A stretch of 64,000 bases of DNA, taken from positions 134,782-198,781 of the forward strand of contig JBEKQZ010000002.1 in assembly GCA_049519175.1 (NCBI GenBank), read 5' to 3'. The notes under the pieces were generated by a model. That model worked only from the letters and a program-made list of their open reading frames with translations. It ran no database searches and had not been told where the DNA came from. Position numbers and translations under genes: made by a program. The stretch's first letter is position 1. Every line of letters starts with the position of its first letter. The stretch comes from Candidatus Levyibacteriota bacterium. GTDB lineage: Bacteria > Patescibacteriota > Microgenomatia > Levybacterales > UBA12049. This document shows positions 32,001 to 64,000 of this stretch, in pieces.

Positions 32001-32717
32001 CTATTTTACCACATTTAACTTCATCCCCTCAATAAAGCCTCTTGTTGAAATCAGCAAATCCAAACTATCTTTTACATGAATTCTCAAAACTCCATGATAA
32101 TTATCATCGCTATATTGCTTTTTCCATTTCGTTTGCTGATAGAAAGTTTTTGTAAATTGGTTTTTCTTTAATCCTGCGATGCTTAACCAGTAGTTTCCTA
32201 TTTCTTCTGTTCTATCTTTATAAGAGTCATTTAAAGTTAATCGAGCAATTATACTATCTTTTTTAATCCCAAAAGATTTCTCAAGCCACTTTATATAAAA
32301 CTTGATCATTCCTGGATCAGAATTACAAAAACCCAAGCGATGTTCATGTCTATTTTTAAAACCTTCTCCCCAATATAAAGCAATTCCAGCTATAAATAAA
32401 TCCCGGCCGCTTAAGTTCCCTACTTTTGAAAGTGCCTTTTGTAAAAGTTTTTTCTCATTATTAAGTTTTAAAACTTCATCTTGTTTTTGCTTTTTAATTC
32501 TTCCTGCTTGCAATGCTTTTTGAGTTCTGGATTTTAATTTTTCAAGTTGTTTCTCGGAAAGCTTAATATCTTTAATCCAACTTCGGATAGTCGTTTTGGG
32601 AACATTCGTTTCGTCGTATATTTGTCCCAAACTTAAGCCTTTTGCGCGCAATTGACGCACTTTATCCTTAAAGACCTGACTATGTTGCATATTTATATTA
32701 TGAAATGACAACTGCAC
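32001..32717 (-). CDS. HTH-domain protein, hypothetical
   Basis: 238 aa. N-terminal HTH (GLSLGQIYDETNVPKTTIRSWIK) and a Lys-rich coiled region. Stop lies 6 nt from the tRNA-Met 5' end. Confidence 0.4.
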   Translation of the reverse strand: MQLSFHNINMQHSQVFKDKVRQLRAKGLSLGQIYDETNVPKTTIRSWIKDIKLSEKQLEKLKSRTQKALQAGRIKKQKQDEVLKLNNEKKLLQKALSKVGNLSGRDLFIAGIALYWGEGFKNRHEHRLGFCNSDPGMIKFYIKWLEKSFGIKKDSIIARLTLNDSYKDRTEEIGNYWLSIAGLKKNQFTKTFYQQTKWKKQYSDDNYHGVLRIHVKDSLDLLISTRGFIEGMKLNVVK

Positions 32718-33112
32718 TATGTCAACAAGAATCTAATAATGACTATCTTTAAGCAATTTTATTGACTATTAGCTTTGATTTTGCTATTATGTTTTTACGC
32801 GCGGGGTAGTGTACAGTGCACATGAGGCTCAAATGGGCCATTTTGATAGTAATATTAAGATAGTACTCAGCTATATCGGTGAAACCCCATCTATTTATTA
32901 TTTAGGGCAATACCGAGGGAAGATCCAATAATTTATTGGGGACCCGTAGAGACTACACGCTGAGGTCGCCACTGGCGACAAGATATAGTCCGACACTCTG
33001 GGTAACCGGAGAAACAGAAAGCATAATCTCATAGGCTAGGCGCAACTCCTAGCCCCGCAACAAATCCCTACAACTTGACTTATAGTTCTTCTAGAGCTAC
33101 AATTTCCCTGCT

Positions 33113-33818: not shown

Positions 33819-34163
33819 CTAGAAGAATAGATTAAACCATTGTTGCCAGTTAGGAAGGTTTTGCTGAACTGGTTTTGCGGGTTGATTTTGGTTTTTAATC
33901 AGACCCGGAGAAATTAGCACCTCTTGTTCCCCCGGCTTGACCAAAAATAACTTATCGTGTGCTTGCTCTTCCAAAAATTGCGGCGTCTGTGCATAAGATA
34001 GTTCGCCTTTTAGTTTTTGGTTTTCCAGTTTTTCCCGCTGCAACTGCTTTTGGGCCGAAGTTAGTAAATCCTGCTTCTGCCAAATATCATAGATTGAGTG
34101 CAACAACCCGTTAATCATTAGAAGCAGCGCTATAACAATAACTATATAAATTGCTTTTTTCAT
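33819..34163 (-). CDS. septum formation initiator (FtsB/DivIC-like)
   Basis: 114 aa. N-terminal TM, coiled coil, and the C-terminal motif EEQAHDKLFLVKPGEQEV typical of FtsB/DivIC. Confidence 0.55.
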   Translation of the reverse strand: MKKAIYIVIVIALLLMINGLLHSIYDIWQKQDLLTSAQKQLQREKLENQKLKGELSYAQTPQFLEEQAHDKLFLVKPGEQEVLISPGLIKNQNQPAKPVQQNLPNWQQWFNLFF

Positions 34164-34252
34164 CTCTTCTGATTTATAATATCACAATTGAGCTATAACG
34201 ATGTATTTTTTGCTATTGACTAGCTGTGAAAATGGTGATATTATAGGCCATC

Positions 34253-35113
34253 ATGAAGACAATCCAACTTCGAACCGCCCACGAAGAATTTAAAAATTAC
34301 TTAAAAGAGGGTAAAAAATCTAATTCAACTGTGGTTGCCTACGGTAAAGACATCGACCAGTTGATTTCTTTTTTGGAAGACTTACAAAAACACGAAGCGC
34401 ATGAAGCCACCAAGGAAGACATTGAAGCGTTTTTGGCCAAATTAACCAAAGAAGGCTACACGCCAAAATCGGTTTCAAGGAAGATTAATTCCACCCGCAC
34501 TTTTTATCGATTTTTAAGAGTTAACGAATATACCACCGACGACCCTTCCCTTTTGGTTTCACACCCTAAATATCAGTTGGCCGCGCCCAGGATGCTGACT
34601 CCGACCGAATACAGAGCTTTAAGAGATGCCGCCAGAAACGACCCAAGAATGTCTGCGGTTATTGAATTACTGCTGCAAACGGGTATTCGCATCGGCGAAT
34701 TGGCAGACTTAAGAATTTCCGATATTAACAAAGATTCTTTGCACATTGCGCCGTTTGAAAAACACGAAGAAAGAAACGTGCCTTTGAATAAAAGAGCACA
34801 GGAAGCTTTAGATAAATATCTAGCAGCCAGACCAAAAGTGCCGGAAGCCCACGTTTTTGTCACTAAATCGGGCAAACCGTTCTTAATTAGGAATATCAGA
34901 ACCGCCGTTGAAAGATATTTCCGCTTAGCCGAAATTAAAGGCGCTAAAGTTAACGATTTAAGACACACTTTTGTCGCCCACCACCTAAAACACGGCGTTT
35001 CATTGGTGGTTTTGTCTAAAGTGCTGGGACATAAAAGAATTTCTACCACCGAAAGATATTTGCAATACGTGCCGGAGCGCGGCAAAGAAACTTCCGTTTT
35101 AACCGAACTGTAA
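34253..35113 (+). CDS. tyrosine site-specific recombinase (XerC/XerD-like)
   Basis: 286 aa. N-terminal SAM-like domain and C-terminal catalytic R...HxxR...Y (RHTFVAHHLKHG...RISTTERYLQ). Confidence 0.8.
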   Translation: MKTIQLRTAHEEFKNYLKEGKKSNSTVVAYGKDIDQLISFLEDLQKHEAHEATKEDIEAFLAKLTKEGYTPKSVSRKINSTRTFYRFLRVNEYTTDDPSLLVSHPKYQLAAPRMLTPTEYRALRDAARNDPRMSAVIELLLQTGIRIGELADLRISDINKDSLHIAPFEKHEERNVPLNKRAQEALDKYLAARPKVPEAHVFVTKSGKPFLIRNIRTAVERYFRLAEIKGAKVNDLRHTFVAHHLKHGVSLVVLSKVLGHKRISTTERYLQYVPERGKETSVLTEL

Positions 35114-35170
35114 CTTCAATAATTTCCTCATTGCTTTGAAAGAGAAAGGATTATTGCTATAATTGTGGCA

Positions 35171-35243
35171 CGCGTCTGTAGCTCAGTGGTAGAGCGGTTG
35201 TCTTATAAACAACAGGTTCCTTGGTTCGATCCCAAGCAGACGC
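35171..35243 (+). tRNA. tRNA-Ile(UAU) (AUA-decoding), by manual fold
   Basis: Acceptor GCGTCTG/CAGACGC perfect. D-arm GCTC-AGTGGTA-GAGC with G18G19 and A21. Anticodon stem GTTGT/ACAAC with loop CTTATAA (U33, anticodon TAT, A37). T-arm CTTGG-TTCGATC-CCAAG. Variable loop apparently 6 nt. Confidence 0.7.
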
Positions 35244-35244
35244 A

Positions 35245-37617
35245 CTAAAGTCTGGCGCGTTCGGCGATTTCCACTTCGAGGCTTTTCACTTCTTTCCCGT
35301 ATTTTAATCTGGATAATTCTCTGATTAATTCCGCCACCCGCGGGTTTTCCGCCGCCTGCTCTTTGGTCATATCACGGGTCAAATCCATCGAAAAAGGCGT
35401 CATCGGCTCGTTGTTCACGATTGTTTTAACATACGCGTTATAAACATCGACATTGATTAAATCTGCTTCCGTAAAAGTTGGTTGGAATTCATGTTGTAAA
35501 TAGTTGGCATCGGTGACGCCGACTCGAAACGAAACCAAGCTTCCGACGTTACCAAAAATCGCGTTTTTGACTTCCTCATCCATCTGACCGATAAACTGGT
35601 TAGCAACAATCAGATTAAGCCTGTATTTTCTCGCTTCCGACAAAATCTGGGCAAAATCGGGTGTCGCGAAATTTTGAAACTCGTCAACATAGAGATAGAA
35701 ATCGCGTCTCTTTTCTTCGGGAACATCCTGCCGACTCATCGCCGCCACTAAAATTTTCGGTACTAAAATTAAACCCAAGAAACTGGCATTTTCCTCGCCG
35801 ATTTTTCCTTTGGATAGAGACACCAAGAGAATTTTTCCCTCGTCCATGACTTTTCTAAAATCAAAGGCGGATTGCGACTGACCGATAATATTGCGCATCA
35901 TTTTATCGGTCACAAAACGGCCAAATTTGGAAACAATGTAGTCGAGAACTTCGGATTTATGGAAATCGTTGGTTTGCGCAATCTGATCGGTCCAATAGCG
36001 GCGGACAATCGGATCTTGGACTTTCGGCAAGAGCTCTTGGACAAAATTAGCATCAGTCAAAACGCGGACCACCTCGACAAAAGTGCTACCCTTCTCGCTC
36101 ATGACGGTTAACATGGCGTTTCTGATAGCATGCTCAAATCTTGGTCCGATAATACCGGTTTTATTCGGATCATAAAGTTTATACATCAACCCGACAATTG
36201 AGGAAACAATGTAGTGTTTTTCCTCTTCGGTTTGCGCCTCCAGCATATTTAAACCCATCGGCCGGTCTGTATCGCTTGGATCAAACAGAATGACGTCTTC
36301 GGCCCTTTCGGGTGGGATGAGGGGTAACAATTTATCGATGGTGTCATGCGGATCAATAAAGCAAACTCCCTCGCCATTTTTGATGTCCTGCAAAATCATG
36401 TCTTTTAAGAATTCCGACTTTCCGACACCGGTTTTTCCGACTACATACATGTGGCGTCTTCGATCATCTTTTTGGATATAAACCGGTTTGGCAATGCCTC
36501 TAAAAGTGCTCATGCCTAAATAAAGACCTGCGGTGGGAATTTGGGCCGGAGCCGGCGCTCTTTTGGCATTTAGCCAATGGATATGCGGTGTCGTCACGTT
36601 TTTGTTGGGAAAATGGAAAACGCTACCCAATTCTTCGCTGGTCAAAACCGCCATGCCACGGTTTGGCAAATAACGGTAGATAAAATCGCTGATAAAGTTT
36701 CCTTTAAGCCAAACTTTAGCTTTGGCAAAAGAGTTAATGCCGTTAAACTGGCCGAAAGCGCTAACCATATTTTCCAAATGCGCCTGCGCAGCTTCCTGCG
36801 AGCTGGAAGAAACGACTAGTCTAATAGTGGTATAGAAACCGGGCTTGGAAATTTTATTTTCAACTCCCTCCAATTCTTTCGGGTCGGCCGCATATTTTGC
36901 GGTTTCGGGATTTGCCTCCCGCTTTTTGGTAGAAGCGATGTATTTGCGGCCTAACTTGCTCCATTTTGACGGCGCGCCGGTAATTAAAACCTGAATCGCC
37001 GCCCCCTCGCCATGCCCCATTTTGGCCAACACCGAAGTAAGGGAGGATAAAGGGTCAACCGCAAAGTCTTTGTAAACTTTGAGTGGTTTGTAGTTTGAAT
37101 CTTTGAGTTTAAGTGACGCAAACGCTACTTTCCCCTCTTTGGAAAAAATATTATATTCATTGCCGATAATATAACCCTCTTTGGCGTTTCCTCTTGCCTC
37201 TTCGTCGACAATTTTTATTTCCGCATCCGGATACGAAGCGTTAATTTGTTTTTCGACGATGTCACGGTATTTGTTGGGGGCATAAACATAAAAACGGATA
37301 TCTTCCGACATCCCGACAATTTCAAACGAAAGATGCGGTTTGTATTTTAAAAAGGCAAATATTCCCGTCGCTTTAATGCCGGTGAAACTGGCAAAGAATT
37401 GTTCGGCGGCGTCAATTTTAATCTCGTTATCGCGCGGCAGCGTGACTTGAATTAAGGTCGAATCAAGCGATTTTTTCTCTCTGTCTTTATTGCCATACCA
37501 AATAATAAATAAGTAGCCAAAACCCAAAACTGCAGCGGCGATAACCAACAAAACAACTAAAGCTACGCATAAAACCGTGACTAGATTAAGAATATTTGGC
37601 AATGCAAAATTATACAT
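35245..37617 (-). CDS. membrane-anchored FtsK/HerA-superfamily ATPase, TraD/TraG/VirD4 (type IV coupling protein)-like
   Basis: 790 aa. N-terminal TM, Walker A VVGKTGVGKSEF, Walker B LYVDEFQNF, and a C-terminal SEARKYRLNLIVANQFIGQ block resembling T4CPs. Stop codon is 2 nt from the tRNA 3' end. Confidence 0.5.
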   Translation of the reverse strand: MYNFALPNILNLVTVLCVALVVLLVIAAAVLGFGYLFIIWYGNKDREKKSLDSTLIQVTLPRDNEIKIDAAEQFFASFTGIKATGIFAFLKYKPHLSFEIVGMSEDIRFYVYAPNKYRDIVEKQINASYPDAEIKIVDEEARGNAKEGYIIGNEYNIFSKEGKVAFASLKLKDSNYKPLKVYKDFAVDPLSSLTSVLAKMGHGEGAAIQVLITGAPSKWSKLGRKYIASTKKREANPETAKYAADPKELEGVENKISKPGFYTTIRLVVSSSSQEAAQAHLENMVSAFGQFNGINSFAKAKVWLKGNFISDFIYRYLPNRGMAVLTSEELGSVFHFPNKNVTTPHIHWLNAKRAPAPAQIPTAGLYLGMSTFRGIAKPVYIQKDDRRRHMYVVGKTGVGKSEFLKDMILQDIKNGEGVCFIDPHDTIDKLLPLIPPERAEDVILFDPSDTDRPMGLNMLEAQTEEEKHYIVSSIVGLMYKLYDPNKTGIIGPRFEHAIRNAMLTVMSEKGSTFVEVVRVLTDANFVQELLPKVQDPIVRRYWTDQIAQTNDFHKSEVLDYIVSKFGRFVTDKMMRNIIGQSQSAFDFRKVMDEGKILLVSLSKGKIGEENASFLGLILVPKILVAAMSRQDVPEEKRRDFYLYVDEFQNFATPDFAQILSEARKYRLNLIVANQFIGQMDEEVKNAIFGNVGSLVSFRVGVTDANYLQHEFQPTFTEADLINVDVYNAYVKTIVNNEPMTPFSMDLTRDMTKEQAAENPRVAELIRELSRLKYGKEVKSLEVEIAERARL

Positions 37618-37620
37618 ATT

Positions 37621-38109
37621 TTAGGCCGGCCGGCCAGTTAATTTCCCGTGAATTCTCTTTAAATGCTTTAACATTAATAGCGCAAAACCATAAATTGAAT
37701 CTGCAAAAAAGATGCCTTCGAAAAACTTTTCCAAATTAAAATTGTGGCCGGGACCTTTTTTCGCCAGTTTCTCAGCTTCTTTTTCATCCATCGGCAGTTG
37801 CACCGCCCCCGTTGGCTCGGTTTTAACCGGCGCCGGCACGGCTTTGACGCCAATCTTCTCCTGTTCTTCTTCAATTTTTATCTCTCTTTCCGCTTCGACA
37901 ATGCCCGCATCGGCAACTTCTTTATCTTTGATAGCAGCTGTTTCTGAAGGCTTTACAAAATCACTAACCGGCGCAGTTTCTACTTCTTTATTAGTTGATC
38001 CAACCGGCGCGACTTGCGGTTGTAGTTGTGGCTGAACAGGAACTGGCGGTTGCGATTGAGATAAGACATTGTTGTTTGTCTGATTTGGTTTTTGAGCAGT
38101 GTCATCCAT
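37621..38109 (-). CDS. low-complexity Pro/Gln/Glu-rich protein, hypothetical
   Basis: 162 aa. PQLQPQVAP repeats and acidic KEE stretches. 4-nt gap to the upstream ATPase gene. Confidence 0.4.
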   Translation of the reverse strand: MDDTAQKPNQTNNNVLSQSQPPVPVQPQLQPQVAPVGSTNKEVETAPVSDFVKPSETAAIKDKEVADAGIVEAEREIKIEEEQEKIGVKAVPAPVKTEPTGAVQLPMDEKEAEKLAKKGPGHNFNLEKFFEGIFFADSIYGFALLMLKHLKRIHGKLTGRPA

Positions 38110-38150
38110 ACGTTAATAATAACATTTATACGTTTAAAGGACAATTGAAT

Positions 38151-39302
38151 TTAAGCGCAGGCATCGACACCGGATTCTTCGACATACTCCTCTTTTGTTA
38201 ATCCGCATCCGGGACAGGTATCTCCAACCGGACCGTCAGCTTTATAATGACACTTTGGGCACGTAAACCATTCTTGATCTGAAAATTCAGAAACGCTAAA
38301 AGGCGAGCTTATTGATTTATTAAATGAAGTTAAAGAAAATCCCCCAGATGCACCACAGCCTGTCATAACCTGCCTTACCGGCCTCGAACCAAGATCTAGA
38401 ATTTCTTCGGTTCTAGCTGTAAATGCATAACTATCAAGGTAAGGATATTTACTTCCATTTCTTATATATACCAATGCCATATCCGCTTTGTTTAATATCG
38501 CATTAAGCGTTAAAAGCTGCATTCTCGTATCAATTGGCATTTCAGAAAGTGTATTTATATAGCTTGTAATAAGCGGTGTGCAGATTCTTATGATTTCAGC
38601 GAATTCTACTTCTGATAGATATTCATGCTCCCGATGAAGATATTTATGAATATTGTCAGCCGTTATAAAAGAATCATTTCTAGATTCTATTTTTATTGGA
38701 TTTGAAAGTAGGCATTCCGGCGTTGGTTGATAATCAATTCCAACAACATCTACGTTTTTAAGCAAAGCCACTGTTTCTTGCGCAGAAAGCGAAGAGCTAT
38801 ACCGTCTTGCTTCGATAAATCTACCTTCACCATTATCTTTCAATGTAAAAATATCATAGAAATTATGCTGGTAAGAAGAACTTTCTCTTCCAGGCGGAGA
38901 AATCGAGAGTATCATTGTCCCAATTGGAACATCTCCTGTAGTTAATGTTTTCTGAATAATTGTAAATCCTGCCAATTCCGCCTGCTCTCTGTCTCTATCT
39001 GTCTCATTCCCATGTCTTTTTCTATACTCAACGCCCCTACTTATCATATTTATGAACGGTTCATCCGTATTTTCGCCAAAAATTTGTCCTTCTTTTATTT
39101 CATAGCGGGTACTAGACAATAAAACACCAAATCTTTCTCCTAAATGAGTTTCAAGCTGACGCTTAGTGTAAAGGTCCAGCTCTCTTTTCCTTTCGGAAGA
39201 AACACTAGACAAAGCTAGATAAGAAACCCTATCAAAAGTTGGCTCGTATGCAATTGCTTGTTCAATCATAAAAAAACTCCTCGTCTTACCGAGGAGTTGC
39301 AT
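38151..39302 (-). CDS. hypothetical protein with C-terminal zinc ribbon
   Basis: 383 aa. C-terminal CPKCHY...CPGCG ribbon. No other recognisable motif. Confidence 0.45.
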   Translation of the reverse strand: MQLLGKTRSFFMIEQAIAYEPTFDRVSYLALSSVSSERKRELDLYTKRQLETHLGERFGVLLSSTRYEIKEGQIFGENTDEPFINMISRGVEYRKRHGNETDRDREQAELAGFTIIQKTLTTGDVPIGTMILSISPPGRESSSYQHNFYDIFTLKDNGEGRFIEARRYSSSLSAQETVALLKNVDVVGIDYQPTPECLLSNPIKIESRNDSFITADNIHKYLHREHEYLSEVEFAEIIRICTPLITSYINTLSEMPIDTRMQLLTLNAILNKADMALVYIRNGSKYPYLDSYAFTARTEEILDLGSRPVRQVMTGCGASGGFSLTSFNKSISSPFSVSEFSDQEWFTCPKCHYKADGPVGDTCPGCGLTKEEYVEESGVDACA

Positions 39303-39414
39303 AAAAAATATGCTTCTGCTCGGAAGTCTTATTTCGGGGCTCTGGCTTTATCGCGTCAAACGCGATTTCACAGTTGCGGCACAGCTCGGAATTTCACCGA
39401 TTTCACCCGTGAAA

Positions 39415-39957
39415 CTATTTCTTTAACCAAACAGTTTCTTTTTGTTTTTCCTTGTAATTTATATATCTTGCAAGAGTAAAAAGCAAGTCGGAAAGCCGGT
39501 TTAAGTAAACGAGAATTTCCGACAATACGGCTTCTTTTTCGGCCAGCATGACCGTTCTTCTTTCGGCCCGTCTGGCGACGGTTCTGGCGTAGTGTAAAAG
39601 CGAACCGGTTTTTCCACCGGGCAAAATGAAGTTTTTCAGTTTTGGCAGTTTTTGGGTTAAGACATCGATTTCTTTTTCAAACTCCACGACCCGTTTCTTA
39701 AGTTTTTCTCCCAAAACCTTATATTCTTTCTCCCCCGGTCCGGCTAGGCTTGCTCCAATTTCAAATAAGTCACTTTGGATTGCCAAAATTTCTTGCTTGA
39801 TTTTCTTATCTTTAATTCGTGAAACCACCACACCCAAAAAACTATTTAATTCGTCCAAATTCCCATAGGCCTCCACCCGGGAGCTTCCTTTTGAAACAGT
39901 TTTCCCGGTATGAAGAGCCGTTTTCCCTTTATCCCCAAATCTTGTATAAATTGGCAT
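39415..39957 (-). CDS. ATP:cob(I)alamin adenosyltransferase, PduO-type
   Basis: About 180 aa from MPIYTRFGDKGKT, the canonical PduO/MMAB N-terminus. The track ORF start at 40041 is probably an artefactual extension into the repeat. Confidence 0.8.
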   Translation of the reverse strand: MPIYTRFGDKGKTALHTGKTVSKGSSRVEAYGNLDELNSFLGVVVSRIKDKKIKQEILAIQSDLFEIGASLAGPGEKEYKVLGEKLKKRVVEFEKEIDVLTQKLPKLKNFILPGGKTGSLLHYARTVARRAERRTVMLAEKEAVLSEILVYLNRLSDLLFTLARYINYKEKQKETVWLKK

Positions 39958-39966
39958 AATCTTAAA

Positions 39967-40056
39967 GGGGTGGCACGGGTAGAAGGGCCCCCGACAGCGC
40001 GCAGTCAGTGAATCGTGAACGAGCACTGGCGGGAGGGACACCCGGGACAGGACCCC
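39967..40056. repeat. structured repeat family 2, intergenic copy
   Basis: GGGGTGGCACGGGTAGAAGGGCCCCCGACAGCGCGCAGTCAGTGAATCGTGAACGAGCACTGGCGGGAGGGACACCCGGGACAGGACCCC. About 88% identical to 23344-23434. Contains the palindromic GACAGCGCGCAGTC core. Confidence 0.8.
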
Positions 40057-40065
40057 TGAATAAAT

Positions 40066-42477
40066 TTAACACTCGGAATAACCGCAGGCGTAACATTTTT
40101 TGCAGCCTTCTTCGTAAGCAAAGCTGGCCGCTCCGCATTCGGGGCAGAGATCATAAAGACTAGTAGCGGTTTCATCGGTTGACAGTGCGCCCCCCGGCGT
40201 TTGCAAAGATAGTTGTTCGATTTTGACAATTTCTTCTTTAGGAGCCGCATCCGCGGCAATCGGCAAGGAATGTCCATTGAGATGCGCGTTGGCAGCGTTG
40301 CCATTATGCACACTTGGATTTTTATCCTCCACCACTCCGTTTACTTTAAATTCAAAATGTTTTGACAACACTTTTGCAATCGCGTCCGGCAGCGAACGGA
40401 CTTTGTTTTCGCCAAACCCGACACTTCTGGCTCCGCCAATGCCGATTAGTTGCGCCACCACTTGTCTGATTCTCTCCCGCGGCGCCAACACGCCATTGAT
40501 TCTTAAGTTAAGCGAGATCATCCTGCCTAATGCGTCGGCCATTGCCGCCACATCCGAACCTGATTTTCCGACGGTAATGAAGACTTCAAACGGCTGCCTA
40601 TTTTCGTCATGATTAATAGTGATGTAGGTTTTGCCAACCGGAGTATCGGTCCCGTAAGTTACTCCTTCCACCATACTTGGTCTTGGCAACACCGGAAGTG
40701 ATGTCTGCACCTGCGGAATAGCGACTTTTTCCTCTTTTTTCTCTTCAATTCTTTCCAAAACGCCTACCCGGCTGCCATCCCGCATGTAAGTAATCCCTTT
40801 TAATCCCATGTCATAAGCTAACATATATAGTCTTTCGACATCTTGGACGGTGTGGCTTTTGGGCGCATTGACCGTTTTGGAAATCGAAGCGTCAATATAT
40901 TCTTGGGCCACCGCTTGCACTTTAACGTGCTCTTCCGGCGTTAAATCATTAGCCGAAGCAAAATAATCCGGTTTTTTGGCGTCGGGATTCTCTTTTTTCC
41001 ACTGCTCAAACAGCGGATGATACATTTTATGCTCACCCAATCGGTCGCGGCGGATAAACTCAAACTCATAAACCGGTTCTACTCCTGATGACACTCCGGT
41101 TAAAAGCGACGTTGAACCCGTTGGCGCAATGGTCAGAAGCACTGCGTTTCTAATCCCCTGTTTAGCGATTTTAGCCCTGATTTCTTTGGGCAAACGTTTG
41201 ATATGAAAACCTTTGAGATATTTTTCCCGGTTGTATTTGGGGAAAGAACCTTTTTCTTTAGCAATGTCGGAAGAGGAGATGTAAGCGTTATCGCGCAAGG
41301 TTTTAAAAATTTTATCAATTACTTTTAGCGATTCCTCACTGCCGTATCTAACTTCCATTTTAATTAAGGCGTCCGCCAGCCCCAAAATCCCCAAACCTTG
41401 TCTGCGAATATCTTTAGCCACTTTTTCGTTTTCTTTATAAAAATAGTAAGTGTCGTCAATAACGTCGTCTAAAAATCGCACTGCCACCTGGACGTCTTTG
41501 GCAAAGTTATCATAGTCAAACTGTTTGTTTTTAACGTAAGCCGCCAGATTGATGGCGCCCAAATTACACACGGCCCAGGCGGATAACGGTTGTTCGCCGC
41601 AAGGATTGGTCGCGATTAGTCTTTCAAAATAATAAGTGTTACTCCTTTTATTACTTCTGTCCAAAAAGTGCAGTCCCGGCTCGGCCGAGCGCCAGGCGGC
41701 GGTGCAAATTAAATCCCACAGATATTTAGCCTTAATGGTTTTTAAAACTTTAACTTTGCCGCCGGTTTTTTTCCAGGCTTCTAAATCGCCTGTCCATTTT
41801 TTGTCGTATTTCGGATCGTCCAAATCAGGATAAACTAAATCCCAATCGTCATTTTTTTTGACCGCTTCCATAAAAGCATCGGATAAACAGACCGACAGAT
41901 TGGCCCCGTTTATTTTATTTAAGTCCTGTTTAACGGTGATAAATTCCTCAATGTCGGGGTGCCAATCCCAAAGCATTAACATCAAAGCGCCCCGTCTTGA
42001 ACCGCCCTGCTGCACAATGTCTTTAGTCGCCAAGGAATAGAGCTCTGCCCAGTTGATTGGACCAGAAGAAAAACCGTTGACTTTTTTCACTCTGGAGCCG
42101 CGCGGCCGAAGTGATGAAAGATTGAGTCCGACTCCGCCGCCGTGCGCCATAATCTCAATCATTTGCGTCAGATTGGCCATGATGCCACCTCTGGAATCCG
42201 GCGGATTTGGAATCACAAAACAATTGTAGTAGGTCACGTCAAAACCGGTTCCGGCGCCGGCCAAAATTCTTCCGCCTGGCAAAAACTTAAAGTCCGCCAT
42301 TAGCTCGTTGAATTTTTTCTCCCATTTCTGGCGGTTTTTCGGCTTTTCGACACTGGCAATTCCTTTAGCCACCCTCTTCCACATTTCGTCCGGAGTTTTC
42401 TCGATGGGCTTTCCCACCTTATCTTTTAAGGAGTATCTATCTAAAAATACTTTTTCTCTGATTCCATCCAGTTTCAT
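40066..42477 (-). CDS. nrdJ: ribonucleoside-diphosphate/triphosphate reductase, class II (adenosylcobalamin-dependent)
   Basis: 803 aa. Active-site NPCGEQPL and a C-terminal Cys-rich zinc ribbon. No NrdB partner. Flanked by nrdR and the PduO-type adenosyltransferase. Confidence 0.75.
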   Translation of the reverse strand: MKLDGIREKVFLDRYSLKDKVGKPIEKTPDEMWKRVAKGIASVEKPKNRQKWEKKFNELMADFKFLPGGRILAGAGTGFDVTYYNCFVIPNPPDSRGGIMANLTQMIEIMAHGGGVGLNLSSLRPRGSRVKKVNGFSSGPINWAELYSLATKDIVQQGGSRRGALMLMLWDWHPDIEEFITVKQDLNKINGANLSVCLSDAFMEAVKKNDDWDLVYPDLDDPKYDKKWTGDLEAWKKTGGKVKVLKTIKAKYLWDLICTAAWRSAEPGLHFLDRSNKRSNTYYFERLIATNPCGEQPLSAWAVCNLGAINLAAYVKNKQFDYDNFAKDVQVAVRFLDDVIDDTYYFYKENEKVAKDIRRQGLGILGLADALIKMEVRYGSEESLKVIDKIFKTLRDNAYISSSDIAKEKGSFPKYNREKYLKGFHIKRLPKEIRAKIAKQGIRNAVLLTIAPTGSTSLLTGVSSGVEPVYEFEFIRRDRLGEHKMYHPLFEQWKKENPDAKKPDYFASANDLTPEEHVKVQAVAQEYIDASISKTVNAPKSHTVQDVERLYMLAYDMGLKGITYMRDGSRVGVLERIEEKKEEKVAIPQVQTSLPVLPRPSMVEGVTYGTDTPVGKTYITINHDENRQPFEVFITVGKSGSDVAAMADALGRMISLNLRINGVLAPRERIRQVVAQLIGIGGARSVGFGENKVRSLPDAIAKVLSKHFEFKVNGVVEDKNPSVHNGNAANAHLNGHSLPIAADAAPKEEIVKIEQLSLQTPGGALSTDETATSLYDLCPECGAASFAYEEGCKKCYACGYSEC

Positions 42478-42478
42478 A

Positions 42479-42928
42479 TTATTTTATTAATTTTTTAACT
42501 TCTTTTTCAAAATCTTCAACATCGACGAATCTTCTAAAAACACTCGAGAAGCGGATGTATGCCACCTTATCTATAGTTTTAAGCCGGGTGGCCACCATCT
42601 GCCCAATCTTCTTGCTTTCTATTTCTACTCCGGACTCGCCTCTTAGCTCCCGCTCAATTTCCGTGACTATCTTTTCAATGTCTTCAAGAGATACTTTGGT
42701 TTTTTCGCAAGACCGAATGATTCCCCGTTTTAATTTATCCCGGTCAAATTGCTCCCGCTTCCCGTCTTTTTTAATAACAATTAAATTAATGTTTTCGATT
42801 CGCTCGTAAGTCGTGAATCTTTTACCGCAAGAGACACATTCCCTTCTTCTTCTGATTGTTTCTAAATCTTCGCTGTCTCTAGTTTCAACGACTTCTGTAT
42901 CTTTACTTCCGCAATATGGACACTTCAT
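42479..42928 (-). CDS. nrdR: transcriptional repressor NrdR
   Basis: 149 aa. N-terminal zinc ribbon MKCPYCGS...CVSCGKRF followed by an ATP-cone. Confidence 0.9.
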   Translation of the reverse strand: MKCPYCGSKDTEVVETRDSEDLETIRRRRECVSCGKRFTTYERIENINLIVIKKDGKREQFDRDKLKRGIIRSCEKTKVSLEDIEKIVTEIERELRGESGVEIESKKIGQMVATRLKTIDKVAYIRFSSVFRRFVDVEDFEKEVKKLIK

Positions 42929-59584: not shown

Positions 59585-59940
59585 GGGGATGCAATTGCAT
59601 CGACAGGATTCGCACTTTAAAAACTGCAAGCCGGCCATGACTAAAGCCGTAAAACTAGTCAAAAATTAAATGCTAGAAGCAATTCTGCATTTCAACCAAA
59701 TTACGCATTCGCTTAATTTGAATTGATGTTCACTAAGTCTTTTCTCAATGGGACTTTTTGAGCAAAAACACAGTTGAGAAATTAATAAGGAAGTTGATTA
59801 GTTCCTTATCGAATTTATAATCTCGGTGATATTTATTCCCTTCTATTGGAAAAGAATATCGCGACTTTTAAAAGTAGAATAAGCTTGTAGAAGTTATTAA
59901 AATGTTTTCTTGGACTCGAGTTCATTGCTCGACATCTCCA
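59585..59940 (+). ncRNA. ssrA: tmRNA (transfer-messenger RNA)
   Basis: Immediately downstream of smpB. The 5' GGGGATG pairs with the 3' CATCTCC acceptor, then discriminator A. T-arm TCGAG-TTCATTG-CTCGA. Internal reading frame (59672-59716) ...ARSNSAFQPNYAFA-TAA resembles degradation tags (..YALAA). Confidence 0.75.
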
Positions 59941-61441
59941 CACTACCTTTTTTTGAGGCTGAAACCTCATTGATTAGCTTGATAGGATAAGCTAATCCAG
60001 CGGTTCCAAACCCATTTTTATAGTCGTACCTCAATTGATCCTCAAAATACATAAAAAGTATCGTCCTTTTGTCATTGTATTCATCGCTTTTCCACATGGA
60101 CATAGGGTCTTTTAACGTGTTTAAAACTTTATCTGATGCGGTTCCAAATTCTTCATTAGTATATTTTCGTTTGTTTAAATTCTCATCGCCTAGTTTCTTT
60201 TTCGATCTTAAATCTTTTATCTTCTCTTCGTAGGTCGCTATTAAATCTTCGTCCTTTGTTTTACTTATTCTCACAAGATAAGACTGAATGGCTATGTCTG
60301 CCTCCTCAGCCTCTGCTGCAATTCTGTCTCGCCATGCGGTATAGTTATCAAGCCTAATTCCCCATTGCTCTTTTAATACATCCTTTGTTAAATCAACCGT
60401 GTCGGCTGCTGGCTTAACTCTGATTAACAGTTCTTCAAATTTTGCCTCAAACTCTTTTTTGCCCGTCGTCTTCCAGTTATAGATACAACCTTTTGTCCTA
60501 CAGAAATAGTGAGGGTATCGTGTGCCTTTTCTTCCCGTACACCAACTTGCTGTCATAGGCTTGGTGCAAGCATCGCAAAGTACGTGCGGACGAAGCGGAA
60601 AAGTATCGGCATAATCTCTTCGTTTCCATGGCTTTGTACGCTCTTGTACACGCTTCTGAACTAGGTTATACGTCTCAAGCGACAGGAAACCCTCATGCCT
60701 TGCTTTCATGAAAGGAATATCCCATTTTTTGTATTCGATATAGCCTGCGTATAACGGCTCCTGCAGTATTCTTTGCGTTGTGCTCATAGATGGTCTGTTA
60801 GGAAGTCCTTTTGCTTTGTATTCTGCGTGTAAAAAACGCATTACCTCTTCTTGCGTAATGAGCAACCCGTCTCTATATTTCTCGATTGCTATCTTATAAA
60901 TAGAAGCATACGGCTCCCTCGGAGTAAGAATTTTGCCGTGGATAGGATCTTTTTTATTTATCATGCCAAGTGGTGGCATAAAAGGCCAGTAACCTTTCTC
61001 AAGTCTTGCTTTCATTTTTTGAATTACCTGCCTTCGATTACTTTTCCTCTGATATTGATTGCTAACAGCGATCATCAACTCTGCCATTTCGCTTTCATCA
61101 CTATCATCGAAGTTAAAATTGAGACATTCCCGTTTTACTCCTCTTGATTGAAACTCTGCTGTTAACTGAATATGTACTTTTACGTCCCTTGCAAAACGAG
61201 ACAAATCATCAAAGATAACTACGTAGTTTTCATGAGAGTGATCATCTATGTAACTAAGTAAGGCGTGCATGGCCGGCCTTTCAAAAAGACTTCCGGATAC
61301 AGCTTCATCAGGGAATACCTTTACAACTTCATAATCTTTGTTTTTGGCATACATTCGACATCGTTGTTCTTGTGATCCCAAACCGTTTCCCTCGTCAACT
61401 TGACGCTGTGATGAAACCCGACAATAAATTAGTGCTTTCAT
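59897..61441 (-). CDS. large serine recombinase (site-specific integrase)
   Basis: 514 aa. Resolvase catalytic domain YCRVSSQRQ...GLGSQE, recombinase domain and Cys-rich zinc ribbon. C-terminal 44 nt overlap the 3' end of ssrA. Confidence 0.85.
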   Translation of the reverse strand: MKALIYCRVSSQRQVDEGNGLGSQEQRCRMYAKNKDYEVVKVFPDEAVSGSLFERPAMHALLSYIDDHSHENYVVIFDDLSRFARDVKVHIQLTAEFQSRGVKRECLNFNFDDSDESEMAELMIAVSNQYQRKSNRRQVIQKMKARLEKGYWPFMPPLGMINKKDPIHGKILTPREPYASIYKIAIEKYRDGLLITQEEVMRFLHAEYKAKGLPNRPSMSTTQRILQEPLYAGYIEYKKWDIPFMKARHEGFLSLETYNLVQKRVQERTKPWKRRDYADTFPLRPHVLCDACTKPMTASWCTGRKGTRYPHYFCRTKGCIYNWKTTGKKEFEAKFEELLIRVKPAADTVDLTKDVLKEQWGIRLDNYTAWRDRIAAEAEEADIAIQSYLVRISKTKDEDLIATYEEKIKDLRSKKKLGDENLNKRKYTNEEFGTASDKVLNTLKDPMSMWKSDEYNDKRTILFMYFEDQLRYDYKNGFGTAGLAYPIKLINEVSASKKGSVEMSSNELESKKTF

Positions 61442-61444
61442 AAT

Positions 61445-61660
61445 TTAATTTAAATCGCTTTTTTCAACAACTGCATCTATAGTCTTATTGCAAATAAGGC
61501 GTAGCATATTTAAGAGATCTAAGACTTGTTGATCTGTCATACTGTCTCCTCTTCTGCCTAACTTTTCTCTTGCCATCTCAATTGTAATCGTTTTAGCTTC
61601 CATCTTCAAATAAAAACTCCCGTCTCGGGTGGAGTCCCTAACAGGAGCTTTTATCTCCAC
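61445..61660 (-). CDS. small hypothetical protein (71 aa), translationally coupled to recombinase
   Basis: Ends 4 nt before the recombinase start codon. No motif recognised. Confidence 0.35.
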   Translation of the reverse strand: MEIKAPVRDSTRDGSFYLKMEAKTITIEMAREKLGRRGDSMTDQQVLDLLNMLRLICNKTIDAVVEKSDLN

Positions 61661-61678
61661 CCGAATCGTTAAAATTCC

Positions 61679-62122
61679 TTACGTATTTGCCACGTTCATC
61701 ATGCCTATCCCTATTCGTTGATCAATCGTGCCGATGTTGAGGTTTGCTTTGGAGTTTTCGGCTGAGTAGAGGTCCAGCCTTAGCTTGAATAAGTCCTTTT
61801 CGATTTCCCATGAGAGCTGAATCATCCGGAGAATGGCAGATACAGGACGGTCGTAGTAGAATCGTTGTTTTGTTTCCGCATCAAGCTCTTCAAGCCTAAT
61901 TAAATATTCCCTTGCTCGTTCTTGCATTCGCCAAATTTCCGTTCGTAGTGATTGCTGATCAATCTTTGCAAGCTGTTCTTCTCGAACTTCATCTAACCAT
62001 TTTCTTATTGTTGGTCTTGAAACTCCGAAAAGTTCACACATTCTCGTCTGAGTAACTTTAGGCTGGGTAGTGACAAGGGCCCTCATCTGCAATTTCAATA
62101 TTTTTTTACCTGTTTTTTCCAT
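61679..62122 (-). CDS. HTH-domain protein (possible regulator or terminase-small-subunit-like)
   Basis: 147 aa. N-terminal HTH RMCELFGVSRPTIRKWLDE and a coiled-coil C-terminus. Confidence 0.45.
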   Translation of the reverse strand: MEKTGKKILKLQMRALVTTQPKVTQTRMCELFGVSRPTIRKWLDEVREEQLAKIDQQSLRTEIWRMQERAREYLIRLEELDAETKQRFYYDRPVSAILRMIQLSWEIEKDLFKLRLDLYSAENSKANLNIGTIDQRIGIGMMNVANT

Positions 62123-62172
62123 TTGTTATTTTGTAAAGTTTTGTAAAGTATTTCACCTTAAAACCACAAAAA

Positions 62173-62212
62173 AAGCGCAGACCCTTTGCAGGTTGCGCTT
62201 GTCTTTTTTAGA
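62173..62212. terminator. bidirectional rho-independent terminator
   Basis: Stem AGCGCAGACC / GGTTGCGCT with loop CTTTGCA. Flanked by an A-run upstream and TGTCTTTTTT downstream, so it works on both strands. Lies between convergent or adjacent island genes. Confidence 0.6.
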
Positions 62213-62406
62213 CTTCGGCTTTTTCTATATTACCAAGCCTATTTTAATTGTCAAGTTTTGAAGATATTGGAAGCTAGTTAAAGAAAGTGTGTAAATAAAA
62301 GGTACATCAACCTAAATGCACCAATAGTAACCCATAAGGTAGGTGCAATTAAGAAAACATAAAGAATAATTGTAATAAATAGTTTTTTCACAAACACATT
62401 TATAAA

Positions 62407-62895
62407 TTATTGGCACCCCATTAAAACTGGAGGGGTAAACAAACAATACATTACCCTTTGAGAACTACCCGGTATACCGCAAATATAGGGCTGGGGGGAT
62501 AGATTCCCTATGTTTGGAAGAGGATTACATAAATATGGCGTTTGTCCTGGTGGTCCACAAAATAGAGTGTGTTCTCCGTTTATTAGTGGACCGGGAGCAT
62601 TTAAGCAACCCATTACTTTATTAGAAGTCTGTGGAGCTGGAGGAACAGGAGTGGCTGTTGGGAGAATGGTAGGCGTTGGTGTATCTGTTGGAGCTTCTGT
62701 CGGAATGGAAAATGTCGGCACGGGCGATACGGATGCGTTATATTGTATCCCCAGAAAAGCATTACTAGGTTTCCATAGTAAAACAACGATAGCTACAGAA
62801 AATATTCCTAAAACAATAATCGCATTACGTACTAATTTGTCGTTTCCCTCTACTGTCTTTTCTTCCGTCTTTATACCTTTTTTCTTTTTCATCAA
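62407..62895 (-). CDS. membrane-anchored Pro/Thr-rich protein with C-terminal Cys-rich domain
   Basis: 162 aa. Basic N-terminus, TM, PTDTPTPT linker and a C-terminal domain with 8 Cys. Confidence 0.4.
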   Translation of the reverse strand: MMKKKKGIKTEEKTVEGNDKLVRNAIIVLGIFSVAIVVLLWKPSNAFLGIQYNASVSPVPTFSIPTEAPTDTPTPTILPTATPVPPAPQTSNKVMGCLNAPGPLINGEHTLFCGPPGQTPYLCNPLPNIGNLSPQPYICGIPGSSQRVMYCLFTPPVLMGCQ

Positions 62896-63155
62896 AAAGC
62901 CCTCCGCCAGCGAAGCCTTTCGACTCCTACCGCCCTTTCGGACGATAACTTTAGAGGTGCTCTGACGAAGAGCTTAATACCTCTAAAGTTTTTTAGCCAT
63001 GCTCACATTGCTGCAAGTTTAGGCAATTAACGCTAGTATAGCACACCAAAATTTATAGTAAATTCACCTCTCATAACATATAATTAGACCGTGGTGCTAA
63101 TGAAAAACATTCTTATCCTAGAAGACAATCTTATTGTTTTGTCTAAATATTTGGT

Positions 63156-63665
63156 ATGGCAATATTAGTTGACAAAAGTTTATTAAAGACAGCTTGTTTA
63201 AAAAATGCAAAAAAGCTACTAAGAGAGTCTAAAAGATTGCTTAACCAAAAAAAGTATGCGTGGTCAACTTTCTTGGCAATAACTTCTTTTGAAGAAAGTC
63301 AAAAATTAGGACTTCTAAGCATGTATGAAGGTAATTTTATATCTGAATCTGAGTTTAGAAAATATTGGCATAGTCATGAATATAAAATAAGGTCGAAGGG
63401 TGCTCGTCTACGATTCACGTTTAATATAAATAAGAAAAAACCTGAGATAGTTTTAGGATCAAAAGAGGAGGCTCAGGAAGTAATAAGGATTAGGGGAGAT
63501 TGTCTTTATGTGGATTTTAATGATATATCAATCTCAGAACCTCTAAGCATTAATATTGCAGTTGCCGTACAATATATAAACGAGGCTAATATGGAATTAA
63601 ATTCAGCTATTTCTTTAGAGCTGTTAGAAAAGAAATTAAAAAGAGCTTTTAAAGTCAAACAATAA
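63156..63665 (+). CDS. hypothetical protein with HEPN-like R-x5-H motif (AbiV-like abortive-infection candidate)
   Basis: 169 aa, AT-rich codon usage. Helical N-terminus with RKYWHSH (Rx4-6H spacing). First gene of a tightly spaced pair. Confidence 0.3.
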   Translation: MAILVDKSLLKTACLKNAKKLLRESKRLLNQKKYAWSTFLAITSFEESQKLGLLSMYEGNFISESEFRKYWHSHEYKIRSKGARLRFTFNINKKKPEIVLGSKEEAQEVIRIRGDCLYVDFNDISISEPLSINIAVAVQYINEANMELNSAISLELLEKKLKRAFKVKQ

Positions 63666-63670
63666 TAACT

Positions 63671-64000
63671 ATGAATAAAGACCAGTTAAGCTTAACAAAA
63701 GCAAAATTTCCCACTCTCTTTTCTTTTTCCCAGGACTATGAAGGAAAGGACAAGAATGATATTAGACAATATTTTAGAGATAAGCCCACTTTAATTCTAG
63801 GTGAGGGTTATTGGTTAAAATATGAACGTGCATTACAACTTTTACCAGTAGAAGACAAAAACCATCTACTCAATAAGCTTAAAACCCTAACAAAAAAACT
63901 TAGTGAACAAGAGGGATGGCCTCATTTTGAAGAGAAATTAAATGAAGCATTAGTTTACGAGTATCTTCAAAAAGAGGGATATAGGAAAATTAAATTTATT
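63671..64000 (+). CDS. hypothetical protein, partial (runs off window end)
   Basis: ATG at 63671, 5 nt after the previous stop. Open for at least 110 codons (MNKDQLSLTKAKFPTLFSFSQDYEGKDKNDIRQYF...). AT-rich. Confidence 0.35.
   Translation, partial: MNKDQLSLTKAKFPTLFSFSQDYEGKDKNDIRQYFRDKPTLILGEGYWLKYERALQLLPVEDKNHLLNKLKTLTKKLSEQEGWPHFEEKLNEALVYEYLQKEGYRKIKFI

Follow-up and report, generated by a model that had tools for sequence, protein, structure and literature searches.

What is a block of three genes, coding for an ATPase that resembles coupling proteins, a small low-complexity protein and a zinc-ribbon protein, doing directly beside a tRNA gene? The question is raised by positions 35245-39302 of a 64-kb stretch of contig JBEKQZ010000002.1 from a Candidatus Levyibacteriota bacterium; this whole stretch of 64,000 nucleotides is called the window here, and all coordinates refer to it. 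The original prediction for this locus, made from the letters alone, had described the three genes as one island-like block and had proposed either a decayed or novel mobile or DNA-transfer module or an ATPase-effector pair in defence. According to our analysis the 4-kb block is probably vertically inherited Candidatus Levyibacteriota chromosome that carries two unrelated conserved units. One is the gene of the zinc-ribbon protein, called ZNR in the following, together with the vitamin B12 genes upstream of it, and the other is the small protein together with the ATPase.

The two units and their coordinates

All three open reading frames (ORFs) that had been predicted are present on the minus strand. 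The corresponding features, in the direction of transcription, are as follows. L001 denotes the window's own contig in the public records and L002 a relative that was found by protein look-up.

42479-42928, minus strand: NrdR, first gene of the cluster whose last gene is ZNR (precomputed Pfam match on L001)
40066-42477, minus strand: class II, B12-dependent ribonucleotide reductase (RNR; precomputed Pfam match on L001)
39415-40041, minus strand: PduO-type ATP:cob(I)alamin adenosyltransferase (Pfam Cob_adeno_trans, 3.3e-55)
39324-39427, minus strand: predicted aptamer of an adenosylcobalamin-type (AdoCbl-type, AdoCbl-II-like) cobalamin riboswitch (covariance model)
39268-39298, minus strand: intrinsic-terminator-like hairpin and U7, ending at the ATG of ZNR
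38151-39269, minus strand: ZNR, 372 aa, with a four-cysteine knuckle (CPKC-x11-CPGCG) at 38205-38261
37621-38109, minus strand: small partner protein, 162 aa (ORF translation; positional homologue in L002)
35245-37617, minus strand: membrane-anchored, DUF8128/T4CP-like ATPase, 790 aa (Pfam PF26449, PF10412 and PF12696; T4CP, type IV coupling protein)

The 790-aa ATPase is 100% identical to a protein that NCBI labels as a Levyibacteriota metagenome-assembled genome (MAG) product. The gap of 41 nt between the ZNR and the small-protein genes is as predicted, and the stop of the 162-aa protein is separated from the ATPase start by 3 nt and not by 4. The length of 383 aa given for the zinc-ribbon protein corresponds to an existing ORF (38151-39302), whose true start is almost certainly the twelfth codon, the ATG at 39269, because the public gene calls begin there and because the first 11 codons coincide with the terminator hairpin and its U-tract (39298-39268). 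The protein thus has 372 residues.

A predicted cobalamin riboswitch in front of ZNR

The gap of 112 nt between PduO and ZNR contains an element resembling a cobalamin riboswitch, which had gone unmentioned in the original prediction. The Rfam model of AdoCbl riboswitches (RF01482) matches it with 26.9 bits (E 0.074). A lineage-specific covariance model (R1), which was built from four Rfam-validated AdoCbl-II elements and with which 850 kb were searched, finds it on the minus strand with 41.4 bits (E 9.5e-9). The aptamer has an intact core (GCUGUGCCGCAACUGU...CAGAG) and an extra hairpin of 21 nt, and the Rfam score is low because of this insertion. The terminator-like hairpin consists of 9 bp (AACUCCUCG/CGAGGAGUU) and is followed by seven U residues up to the ATG of ZNR, and we read hairpin and U-tract as the likely expression platform of the riboswitch.

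The distribution of the element in other genomes was followed with a profile derived from an alignment of 60 ZNR homologues (alignment A1), which served to fetch 80 metagenomic loci and to scan the 80 genome loci that had been fetched with the ATPase profile. The covariance model finds a riboswitch in 63 of the 72 ZNR loci for which upstream sequence is available. It lies directly before ZNR in 36 of them; in 25 it is found only before the PduO-ZNR pair, and in two at a greater distance upstream. At the Rfam gathering score an AdoCbl-II or Cobalamin riboswitch directly precedes ZNR in L096, and the same holds for 10 of 20 further loci in which the covariance model had placed the element there. 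In two of these ten, L154 and L159, no PduO was detected upstream of ZNR, in about 1-2 kb of upstream sequence each. Because the riboswitch precedes ZNR or the PduO-ZNR pair across the relatives, ZNR is, as far as can be judged from sequence, a member of the B12 regulon, and this is the best-supported new statement on the block. Some observations speak against this assignment. The element of the window remains under the Rfam gathering score of 50 bits, so its predicted identity rests on the lineage-specific model and on the orthologous positions, and no riboswitch was found by the model in nine of the 72 loci.

The arrangement resembles the known B12 salvage operons under cobalamin riboswitches (AdoCbl-II RF01689, clan CL00101) in the aptamer core, the 5' position, the terminator-type platform and the link to PduO and a B12-dependent RNR. 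It differs from them in the controlled gene, ZNR, for which no family has been described, and in the 21-nt insertion of the aptamer.

In some relatives further genes stand between RNR and PduO. AdoCbl-II riboswitches precede DUF4430 and DUF6580 genes in L005 (5641-7054), where these genes precede PduO, in L096 (2857-3965) and in L009 (3999-4080). Both genes are absent from the cluster of the window. We take DUF4430 to be a transcobalamin-like beta domain and DUF6580 to resemble the S-component membrane proteins of energy-coupling factor type, and the two genes are candidates for B12 uptake genes. Literature searches for DUF6580, and for adenosyltransferase, RNR and cobalamin in Patescibacteria, returned nothing. 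The slot behind PduO, which ZNR occupies in the window, is empty in the Levybacteria L005 and L016 and holds an unrelated protein of 632-662 aa in L013 and L014. In the latter two loci (L013 5487-7514, L014 5405-7513) a partial riboswitch match, covering model positions 26-67, precedes these 632- and 662-aa proteins. The slot may therefore be a variable cargo position under B12 control.

ZNR represents an undescribed protein family

The predicted CPKC...CPGC ribbon is found at aa 348-366 of the 383-aa ORF. Apart from this C-terminal knuckle, Pfam, NCBIfam, PHROG and PADLOC assign ZNR to no family, and none of its 274 homologues has a Pfam domain. The AlphaFold2 (AF2) model has a mean predicted local distance difference test score (pLDDT) of 87.3 and consists of a novel alpha/beta and helical body, for which Foldseek finds no match in the PDB at E<0.1 (best E 0.2, template modelling score (TM-score) at most 0.17). 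The matches of the knuckle to known families are all sub-threshold. RUBY_RBDX was obtained with 12 of the 60 members (best E 0.077), and rubrerythrin and L37ae are found in the PDB. Neither a signal peptide nor a membrane segment is present and the protein is cytoplasmic. ZNR is thus an undescribed protein family.

Several residues are invariant in alignment A1, namely E45, R46, R94, E95, E98, the YxHNFYD block, R156 and C305-G-x-S308. In the knuckle C337 and C355 are invariant, and C340 and C352 are conserved in at least 90% of the sequences. At least 90% of the members also keep a triad of histidines on one helix face (H208, H212 and H215).

The ATPase and its closest relatives

The ATPase had been described as a membrane-anchored member of the FtsK/HerA superfamily reminiscent of coupling proteins. 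This description holds, and its motifs are where they had been reported. The parts of the protein map to the minus strand of the window as follows.

37465-37602: long N-terminal helix with the sole predicted membrane anchor, aa 6-51 (AF2)
36508-37461: DUF8128 alpha/beta domain, about aa 53-370 (precomputed PF26449; AF2)
35383-36486: TrwB/VirD4-like nucleotide-binding domain, aa 378-745 (Pfam, PDB sequence matches, Foldseek)
36415-36438: Walker A, GKTGVGKS, aa 394-401
about 35842-36228: all-alpha insert, with helices at aa 464-592 (AF2)
35668-35700: Walker B, FYLYVDEFQNF, aa 640-650, including DEFQNF at aa 645-650
35584-35640: SEARKYRL...ANQFIGQ block (SEARKYRLNLIVANQFIGQ), aa 660-678

In Pfam, TrwB_AAD_bind (PF10412, 24.2 bits, cut-off 20.5) and TraG-D_C (PF12696, 24.8 bits, cut-off 22) match above their cut-offs, and DUF87 slightly exceeds its own in the local scan. 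DUF8128 (PF26449) is precomputed in the N-terminal half of the identical protein P0001 and of all 120 homologues listed; a literature search on DUF8128 returned nothing. PF02534 stays below its cut-off (17.4 against 20.1 bits), CagE_TrbE_VirB gives no match, and the curated TraD and VirD4 equivalogs are all far under threshold, the best in NCBIfam being SXT_TraD with 48.3 bits against a cut-off of 366. The best sequence matches in the PDB are TrwB (3.7e-7, with an alignment that spans the Walker A region) and DotL. In the AF2 model (mean pLDDT 86.1) a long N-terminal helix is followed by an alpha/beta domain of about 320 aa, the motor with its all-alpha insert, and C-terminal helices. Foldseek relates this model to TrwK/VirB4, TrwB, HerA and Cagbeta, including the Cagbeta-CagZ structure 8dol, and the motor superposes on TrwB with a TM-score of 0.65-0.71 normalised to TrwB. 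The closest characterised relatives of the ATPase are therefore the T4CPs. The lowest E-value with the full-length model was obtained for TrwK/VirB4 (4.5e-18 over about 850 columns). Because the TM-score is only about 0.3 despite this E-value, with a root-mean-square deviation of 16 Å, a fold of the DUF8128 part like the N-terminal domain of VirB4 is only suggested by the model. The N-terminus contains a hydrophobic run from I9 to Y41 that is followed by NKDREKK, from which we infer an N-out, C-in topology.

With TrwB of R388, VirD4, TraD/TraG, DotL and Cagbeta the ATPase shares the P-loop motor, Walker A and B, the all-alpha insert, the TraG-D_C region and the N-terminal anchor. Canonical T4CPs have two membrane helices, whereas a single one is predicted here. 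The DUF8128 domain of about 320 aa between anchor and motor is absent from canonical coupling proteins, and the ATPase is not linked to a relaxase or VirB4 and is chromosomal, near-universal and highly conserved. A second, distant group of relatives is found in large Bacillus phages. SPO1 gp27.4 and phage G gp156 (phrog_5156, E 4e-85) are homologous over both DUF8128 and the motor (tblastn, 59-85% of the query at 20-23% identity) but are phage-borne and larger (825-907 aa). The homologue of phage G (L003, gp155-gp156) lies beside a VirB4-like gene, and that of SPO1 (L004) beside genes annotated as partition protein and as replication initiation by nicking.

At E<=1e-3 the family comprises 22,332 cluster representatives, and it extends to every major class of the Patescibacteria. 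The 80 genome loci fetched with the ATPase profile belong to more than 15 candidate phyla, and the groups represented are Levy-, Curtiss-, Woese-, Roizman-, Davies-, Shapiro-, Dojka-, Sacchari-, Uhr-, Magasanik-, Berkel-, Staskawicz-, Portnoy- and Peribacteria as well as WWE3. The flanking genes are housekeeping genes throughout (dnaX, cysS, gyrB, pheT, L,D-transpeptidase, xerC and divIC). Some genomes contain tandem paralogues (L040, L053 and L066; proteins P0262-P0283 and P0291-P0339 for family variants), and giant versions of 1,400-2,000 aa have the motor N-terminal or at the extreme C-terminus. ATPases with 56-70% identity to that of the window also occur in MAG records titled 'uncultured Gammaproteobacteria', 'Bathyarchaeia archaeon' or 'Limisphaerales' (L006-L008, L013-L016 and L025). 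Most of those checked have the Levybacteria type of gene order, and these titles are probably taxonomic mislabels or the result of bin contamination.

VirD4-like T4CP homologues have been reported in 2,918 of 3,035 Patescibacteria genomes (about 96%) and VirB4 in 2,417, and only 148 of 5,713 T4CP homologues were near virB4 (Quinonero-Coronel et al. 2025, PMC12102498). The ATPase of the window most likely belongs to this orphan family, with which it shares the phylum, a weak similarity of the VirD4 type and a location away from virB4; DUF8128, the small upstream ORF and the synteny with tRNA-Ile(UAU) and Xer are not described in that study (PMC12102498). Its authors state that exaptation of the T4CP homologues cannot be ruled out. 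Another study found an essential type IV secretion system (T4SS) cluster without a recognisable coupling protein (Cell 2023, PMC10633639). We consider it possible, if somewhat doubtful, that the ATPase serves a Patescibacteria T4SS encoded elsewhere. Two points weigh against a coupling role of this kind. The T4CP homologue of S. epibionticum is dispensable for epibiotic growth (PMC12102498), and no T4SS genes were found among the ORFs of the window that were scanned.

One alternative is that the motor pumps DNA. We regard an FtsK-like DNA pump as unlikely, and give still less credit to its specific form, a pump for chromosome segregation and dimer resolution that would act with the adjacent Xer at the septum and would not be a secretion coupling protein. 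The ATPase is indeed a membrane-anchored member of the FtsK/HerA superfamily. Its neighbours are xerC-like and divIC genes in the Microgenomates and dnaX or gyrB in other classes, and by the published count VirD4-like proteins are more widespread than VirB4. However, Pfam FtsK_SpoIIIE (PF01580) reaches 18.6 bits against a cut-off of 24. A tblastn search at 1e-5 with the motor of E. coli FtsK over the 1.74 Mb of loci that had been fetched matched none of about 90 family members and revealed no canonical FtsK in these fragments. In sequence and fold the ATPase is closest to TrwB, DotL and VirB4, and it has the all-alpha insert specific to T4CPs. In addition, xer is on the opposite strand, and TM7x has a separate gene annotated as ftsK.

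A small protein encoded directly before the ATPase

The protein of 162 aa has the predicted PQ-rich stretch within a low-complexity, acidic N-terminal part and ends in an amphipathic or hydrophobic helix (...SIYGFALLMLKHLKRIHGKL). No family match was found in Pfam, NCBIfam, PADLOC or PHROG. L002 encodes a homologue at the same position with 32-34% identity. In 54 of 73 Patescibacteria loci (74%) an ORF of 90-200 aa on the same strand ends at most 200 nt upstream of the ATPase, compared to 53 of 274 controls (19%), for which other genes of at least 300 aa were used. With a gap of at most 21 nt such an ORF is present in 52% of the ATPase loci and in 11% of the controls. The small upstream proteins have low-complexity N-terminal parts and C-terminal helices that are specific to the class. 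In Microgenomates the C-terminal motif is approximately S/T-x-x-W-L-A...R..K, of which SIYGFALLMLKHLKRIHGKL is the variant of the window. A single family of partners is opposed by profile comparison. No homology among the class-specific clusters is detectable with hhalign (probability at most 5.6%; the best pair, c10 and c11, has E 0.007 and 5.6%), and the small ORFs of different classes may be analogous and not one family. As hhalign relates none of the clusters, we claim only the conserved position. A promoter-like site in the 41-nt gap before the small ORF was not used, the count of such sites being equal to the shuffle expectation.

Small proteins encoded beside the motor are also known from the pairs CagZ-Cagbeta, TraM-TraD and PcfF-PcfC, and this likeness is by analogy only; there is no evidence from sequence or structure that the 162-aa protein resembles CagZ, TraM or PcfF.

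One operon or two units?

The three genes could still be one B12-regulated operon in which ZNR would serve the ATPase specifically, as its partner or substrate adaptor. They share the strand and are separated by 3 and 41 nt only, and the ATPase lies downstream of ZNR in 25 of 48 informative loci. The neighbours of ZNR tell the two sides apart. In 58 of 71 informative loci the gene directly upstream is PduO, and its stop codon often overlaps the start codon of ZNR. Where both sides of ZNR are informative, PduO and the ATPase are both present in 20 loci, PduO alone in 15, the ATPase alone in one and neither in five. For the 15 loci with PduO and ZNR and no ATPase, 2.5-6 kb of downstream sequence is available. 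Conversely, more than 70 loci have the pair of small ORF and ATPase and no ZNR, including the Levybacteria L005, L013, L014 and L016, and the ZNR riboswitch is kept even where neither neighbour is detected (L154, L159). ZNR is found beside the ATPase in only four of the ATPase-profile genome loci (L006, L007, L009 and L060) and also in L002, and the adjacency is limited to a subset of Levybacteria-like genomes.

A single operon is thus improbable. ZNR is the terminal gene of the cluster of NrdR, class II RNR and PduO, and the small protein and the ATPase are a separate pair, so that the three genes do not form one block as had been supposed. Some evidence pulls the other way. The window shows no terminator between the ZNR gene and that of the small protein, and in L124 and L125 the ORFs of ZNR, small protein and ATPase overlap. 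The two units may therefore be transcribed together in some genomes. A functional link between them is unlikely because many loci have one unit without the other.

Conserved chromosome and not an island at the tRNA

The tRNA gene gave rise to the idea that an integrative mobile element, or a module for DNA transfer, had inserted here and used the ATPase as coupling protein. Beyond the ATPase stop the window contains the following features, of which the Xer-type recombinase gene had not been mentioned before.

35172-35245, plus strand: tRNA-Ile(UAU), anticodon TAT, convergent with the ATPase gene (ARAGORN; Rfam tRNA, 70.5 bits)
35136-35163, plus strand: promoter-like TTGAAA-16-TATAAT with TG extension, directly 5' of the tRNA (11 of 12 matches)
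34253-35113, plus strand: Xer-type tyrosine recombinase (Pfam Phage_integrase family)
33819-34163, after Xer: DivIC/FtsB (Pfam)

The tRNA lies beside the ATPase as predicted (35172-35244/5). The TAG stop of the ATPase, the complement of 35245-35247, abuts it with a gap of 0-1 nt and not of 2 nt.

In favour of a mobile element, the ATPase has T4CP-like domains and abuts a tRNA, a gene of the Phage_integrase family lies across this tRNA, and distant homologues occur in Bacillus phages beside VirB4-like, nickase and partition genes. The comparison of gene order, which had been suggested as a means of finding presence or absence at the tRNA, yields the same arrangement in many distinct genomes and conservation across Microgenomates. 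L001 and L002 have in common the order PGK, GAPDH, Cmk, DUF5667, NrdR, class II RNR, PduO, ZNR, small protein, ATPase, tRNA-Ile(UAU), Xer and DivIC. The order RNR, PduO, (ZNR), small ORF, ATPase, tRNA-Ile(UAU), Xer and DivIC is repeated across distinct Levybacteria genomes and metagenomic loci, and in 26 of 31 Microgenomates loci the next gene behind the ATPase is this tRNA. The position of the tRNA is thus ancestral synteny and not an integration site. The recombinase is 84% identical to its L002 orthologue at the equivalent position, and Xer and DivIC follow the ATPase in many loci; it is part of a conserved chromosomal context rather than the integrase of an island. Further identities between the window and L002 are 79% for the ATPase, 82% for RNR and 80% each for FtsH and GAPDH, compared to just 56-69% for PGK, a MurD-like protein and TGT. 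The ATPase is hence conserved like RNR, at the level of housekeeping proteins.

The expected traces of integration were also sought. The search for a direct repeat of the tRNA 3' end finds only one match in the whole window, with up to three mismatches allowed and no second copy, and neither direct nor inverted boundary repeats are present at 34000-41000. The G+C fraction of the block is 0.39-0.46, compared to 0.31-0.49 for the window, and does not change abruptly at either border. Among the genes called within 10 kb and the largest ORFs elsewhere in the window (not every ORF was scanned) there is no VirB4, VirB6 or relaxase. The island reading fails because the position is conserved and boundary repeats are lacking, which the original prediction had itself named as the outcome that would speak against it, and a mobile element is very improbable. 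In this phylum a lone ATPase of coupling-protein type beside a tRNA is therefore no sign of an island.

An anti-phage pair or triplet of a HerA/mad8-like ATPase with effectors is just as hard to credit, although PADLOC reports mad8 (1.8e-17) and weak HerA matches, because all of these fall on the generic P-loop NTPase core of the ATPase, the small protein and ZNR have no PADLOC match, and the family is near-universal in the phylum, in fixed housekeeping contexts and, for the ATPase, under strong purifying selection, the opposite of patchy defence genes with a fast turnover.

The tRNA cassette and other elements of the window

Most bacteria decode AUA via a lysidine-modified tRNA-Ile(CAU). A tRNA-Ile with the anticodon UAU is present in the window and conserved across Microgenomates. 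Together with its promoter it forms a cassette of about 110 bp whose place downstream of the ATPase is kept and whose orientation flips between genomes. L002 has the promoter motif before its tRNA as well, in a cassette that as a whole is turned the other way. Cassette loci are found in the window (35136-35245), in L002 (12382-12491) and in L005, L007, L008, L018, L019, L060 and L104. In the 26 loci the tRNA is on the strand of the ATPase in 20 cases and inverted in six; the window's own copy is also inverted.

Another tRNA gene of the window, tRNA(CAU) at 32800-33060 on the plus strand, carries a group I intron in its anticodon loop (about 32831-33022; Rfam RF00028, 56.2 bits). Its exons agree in every base with the uninterrupted tRNA-Met of L002 (14605-14674). 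The adjoining ORF of 238 aa (32001-32717, minus strand) has no Pfam match; at the equivalent spot L002 has a NUMOD3 homing-endonuclease-like gene. At the far end of the window, the 3' end of a transfer-messenger RNA gene (59585-59943, plus strand) is overlapped by the gene of a large serine recombinase (59897-61441, minus strand). A LOOT RNA follows at 62912-63025 on the minus strand, and the G+C fraction drops to 0.31 at 63-64 kb. The region 59585-64000 looks like a real candidate for an integrated element in the window.

Proposed functions and significance

For ZNR we propose that high AdoCbl would cause termination of transcription, and that scarcity of B12 would accordingly lead to synthesis of the protein. 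Because ZNR appears to be AdoCbl-repressed and is often translationally coupled to PduO, we suggest that it might handle cobalamin for the adenosylation by PduO. In one version the rubredoxin-like CPxC...CPGCG knuckle would donate an electron for the reduction of cob(II)alamin to cob(I)alamin; alternatively, ZNR might belong to a B12-sparing bypass of deoxynucleotide supply. It counts against these proposals that we infer a biochemical role for a protein with no detectable homologue of known function. The ATPase could form a hexameric, membrane-anchored, NTP-driven translocase or substrate receptor in the manner of coupling proteins. The fast-evolving small protein could act on it as an adaptor or regulator, in the way that CagZ, TraM or PcfF act on their respective coupling proteins.

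A bolder proposal would join both units into a supra-operon for the supply of DNA precursors in Levybacteria. The ATPase would be an envelope motor that is independent of the T4SS and takes up nucleic acid or nucleotides from the host or handles DNA in another way, and ZNR a cobalamin-processing redox protein of new fold that sustains the B12-dependent RNR. We hold this to be improbable. If true, a function would be found both for the uncharacterised ATPase that is most widespread in the candidate phyla radiation and for a new family of the B12 regulon.

Patescibacteria are a major part of bacterial diversity, and for most of the genes conserved among them no function is known. What was already known of the block is the ATPase, which is an ordinary member of a known, uncharacterised Patescibacteria family. 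This family is among the most conserved and widespread proteins of the group, and its role is an acknowledged open question. New are its conserved small partner and its synteny, and the predicted control of an undescribed family, ZNR, by a B12 riboswitch. The small upstream partner, the DUF8128 domain between anchor and motor, and the fixed housekeeping synteny offer handles for experiments on the ATPase. To our knowledge, these organisms cannot make B12 yet depend on a B12-dependent RNR. The riboswitch evidence places a hypothetical family without known fold in their predicted vitamin B12 regulon. New transporters and processing enzymes, for example BtuM and CbrT, have been recognised before in the regulons of B12 riboswitches, and ZNR is a testable candidate for a further protein of this sort.

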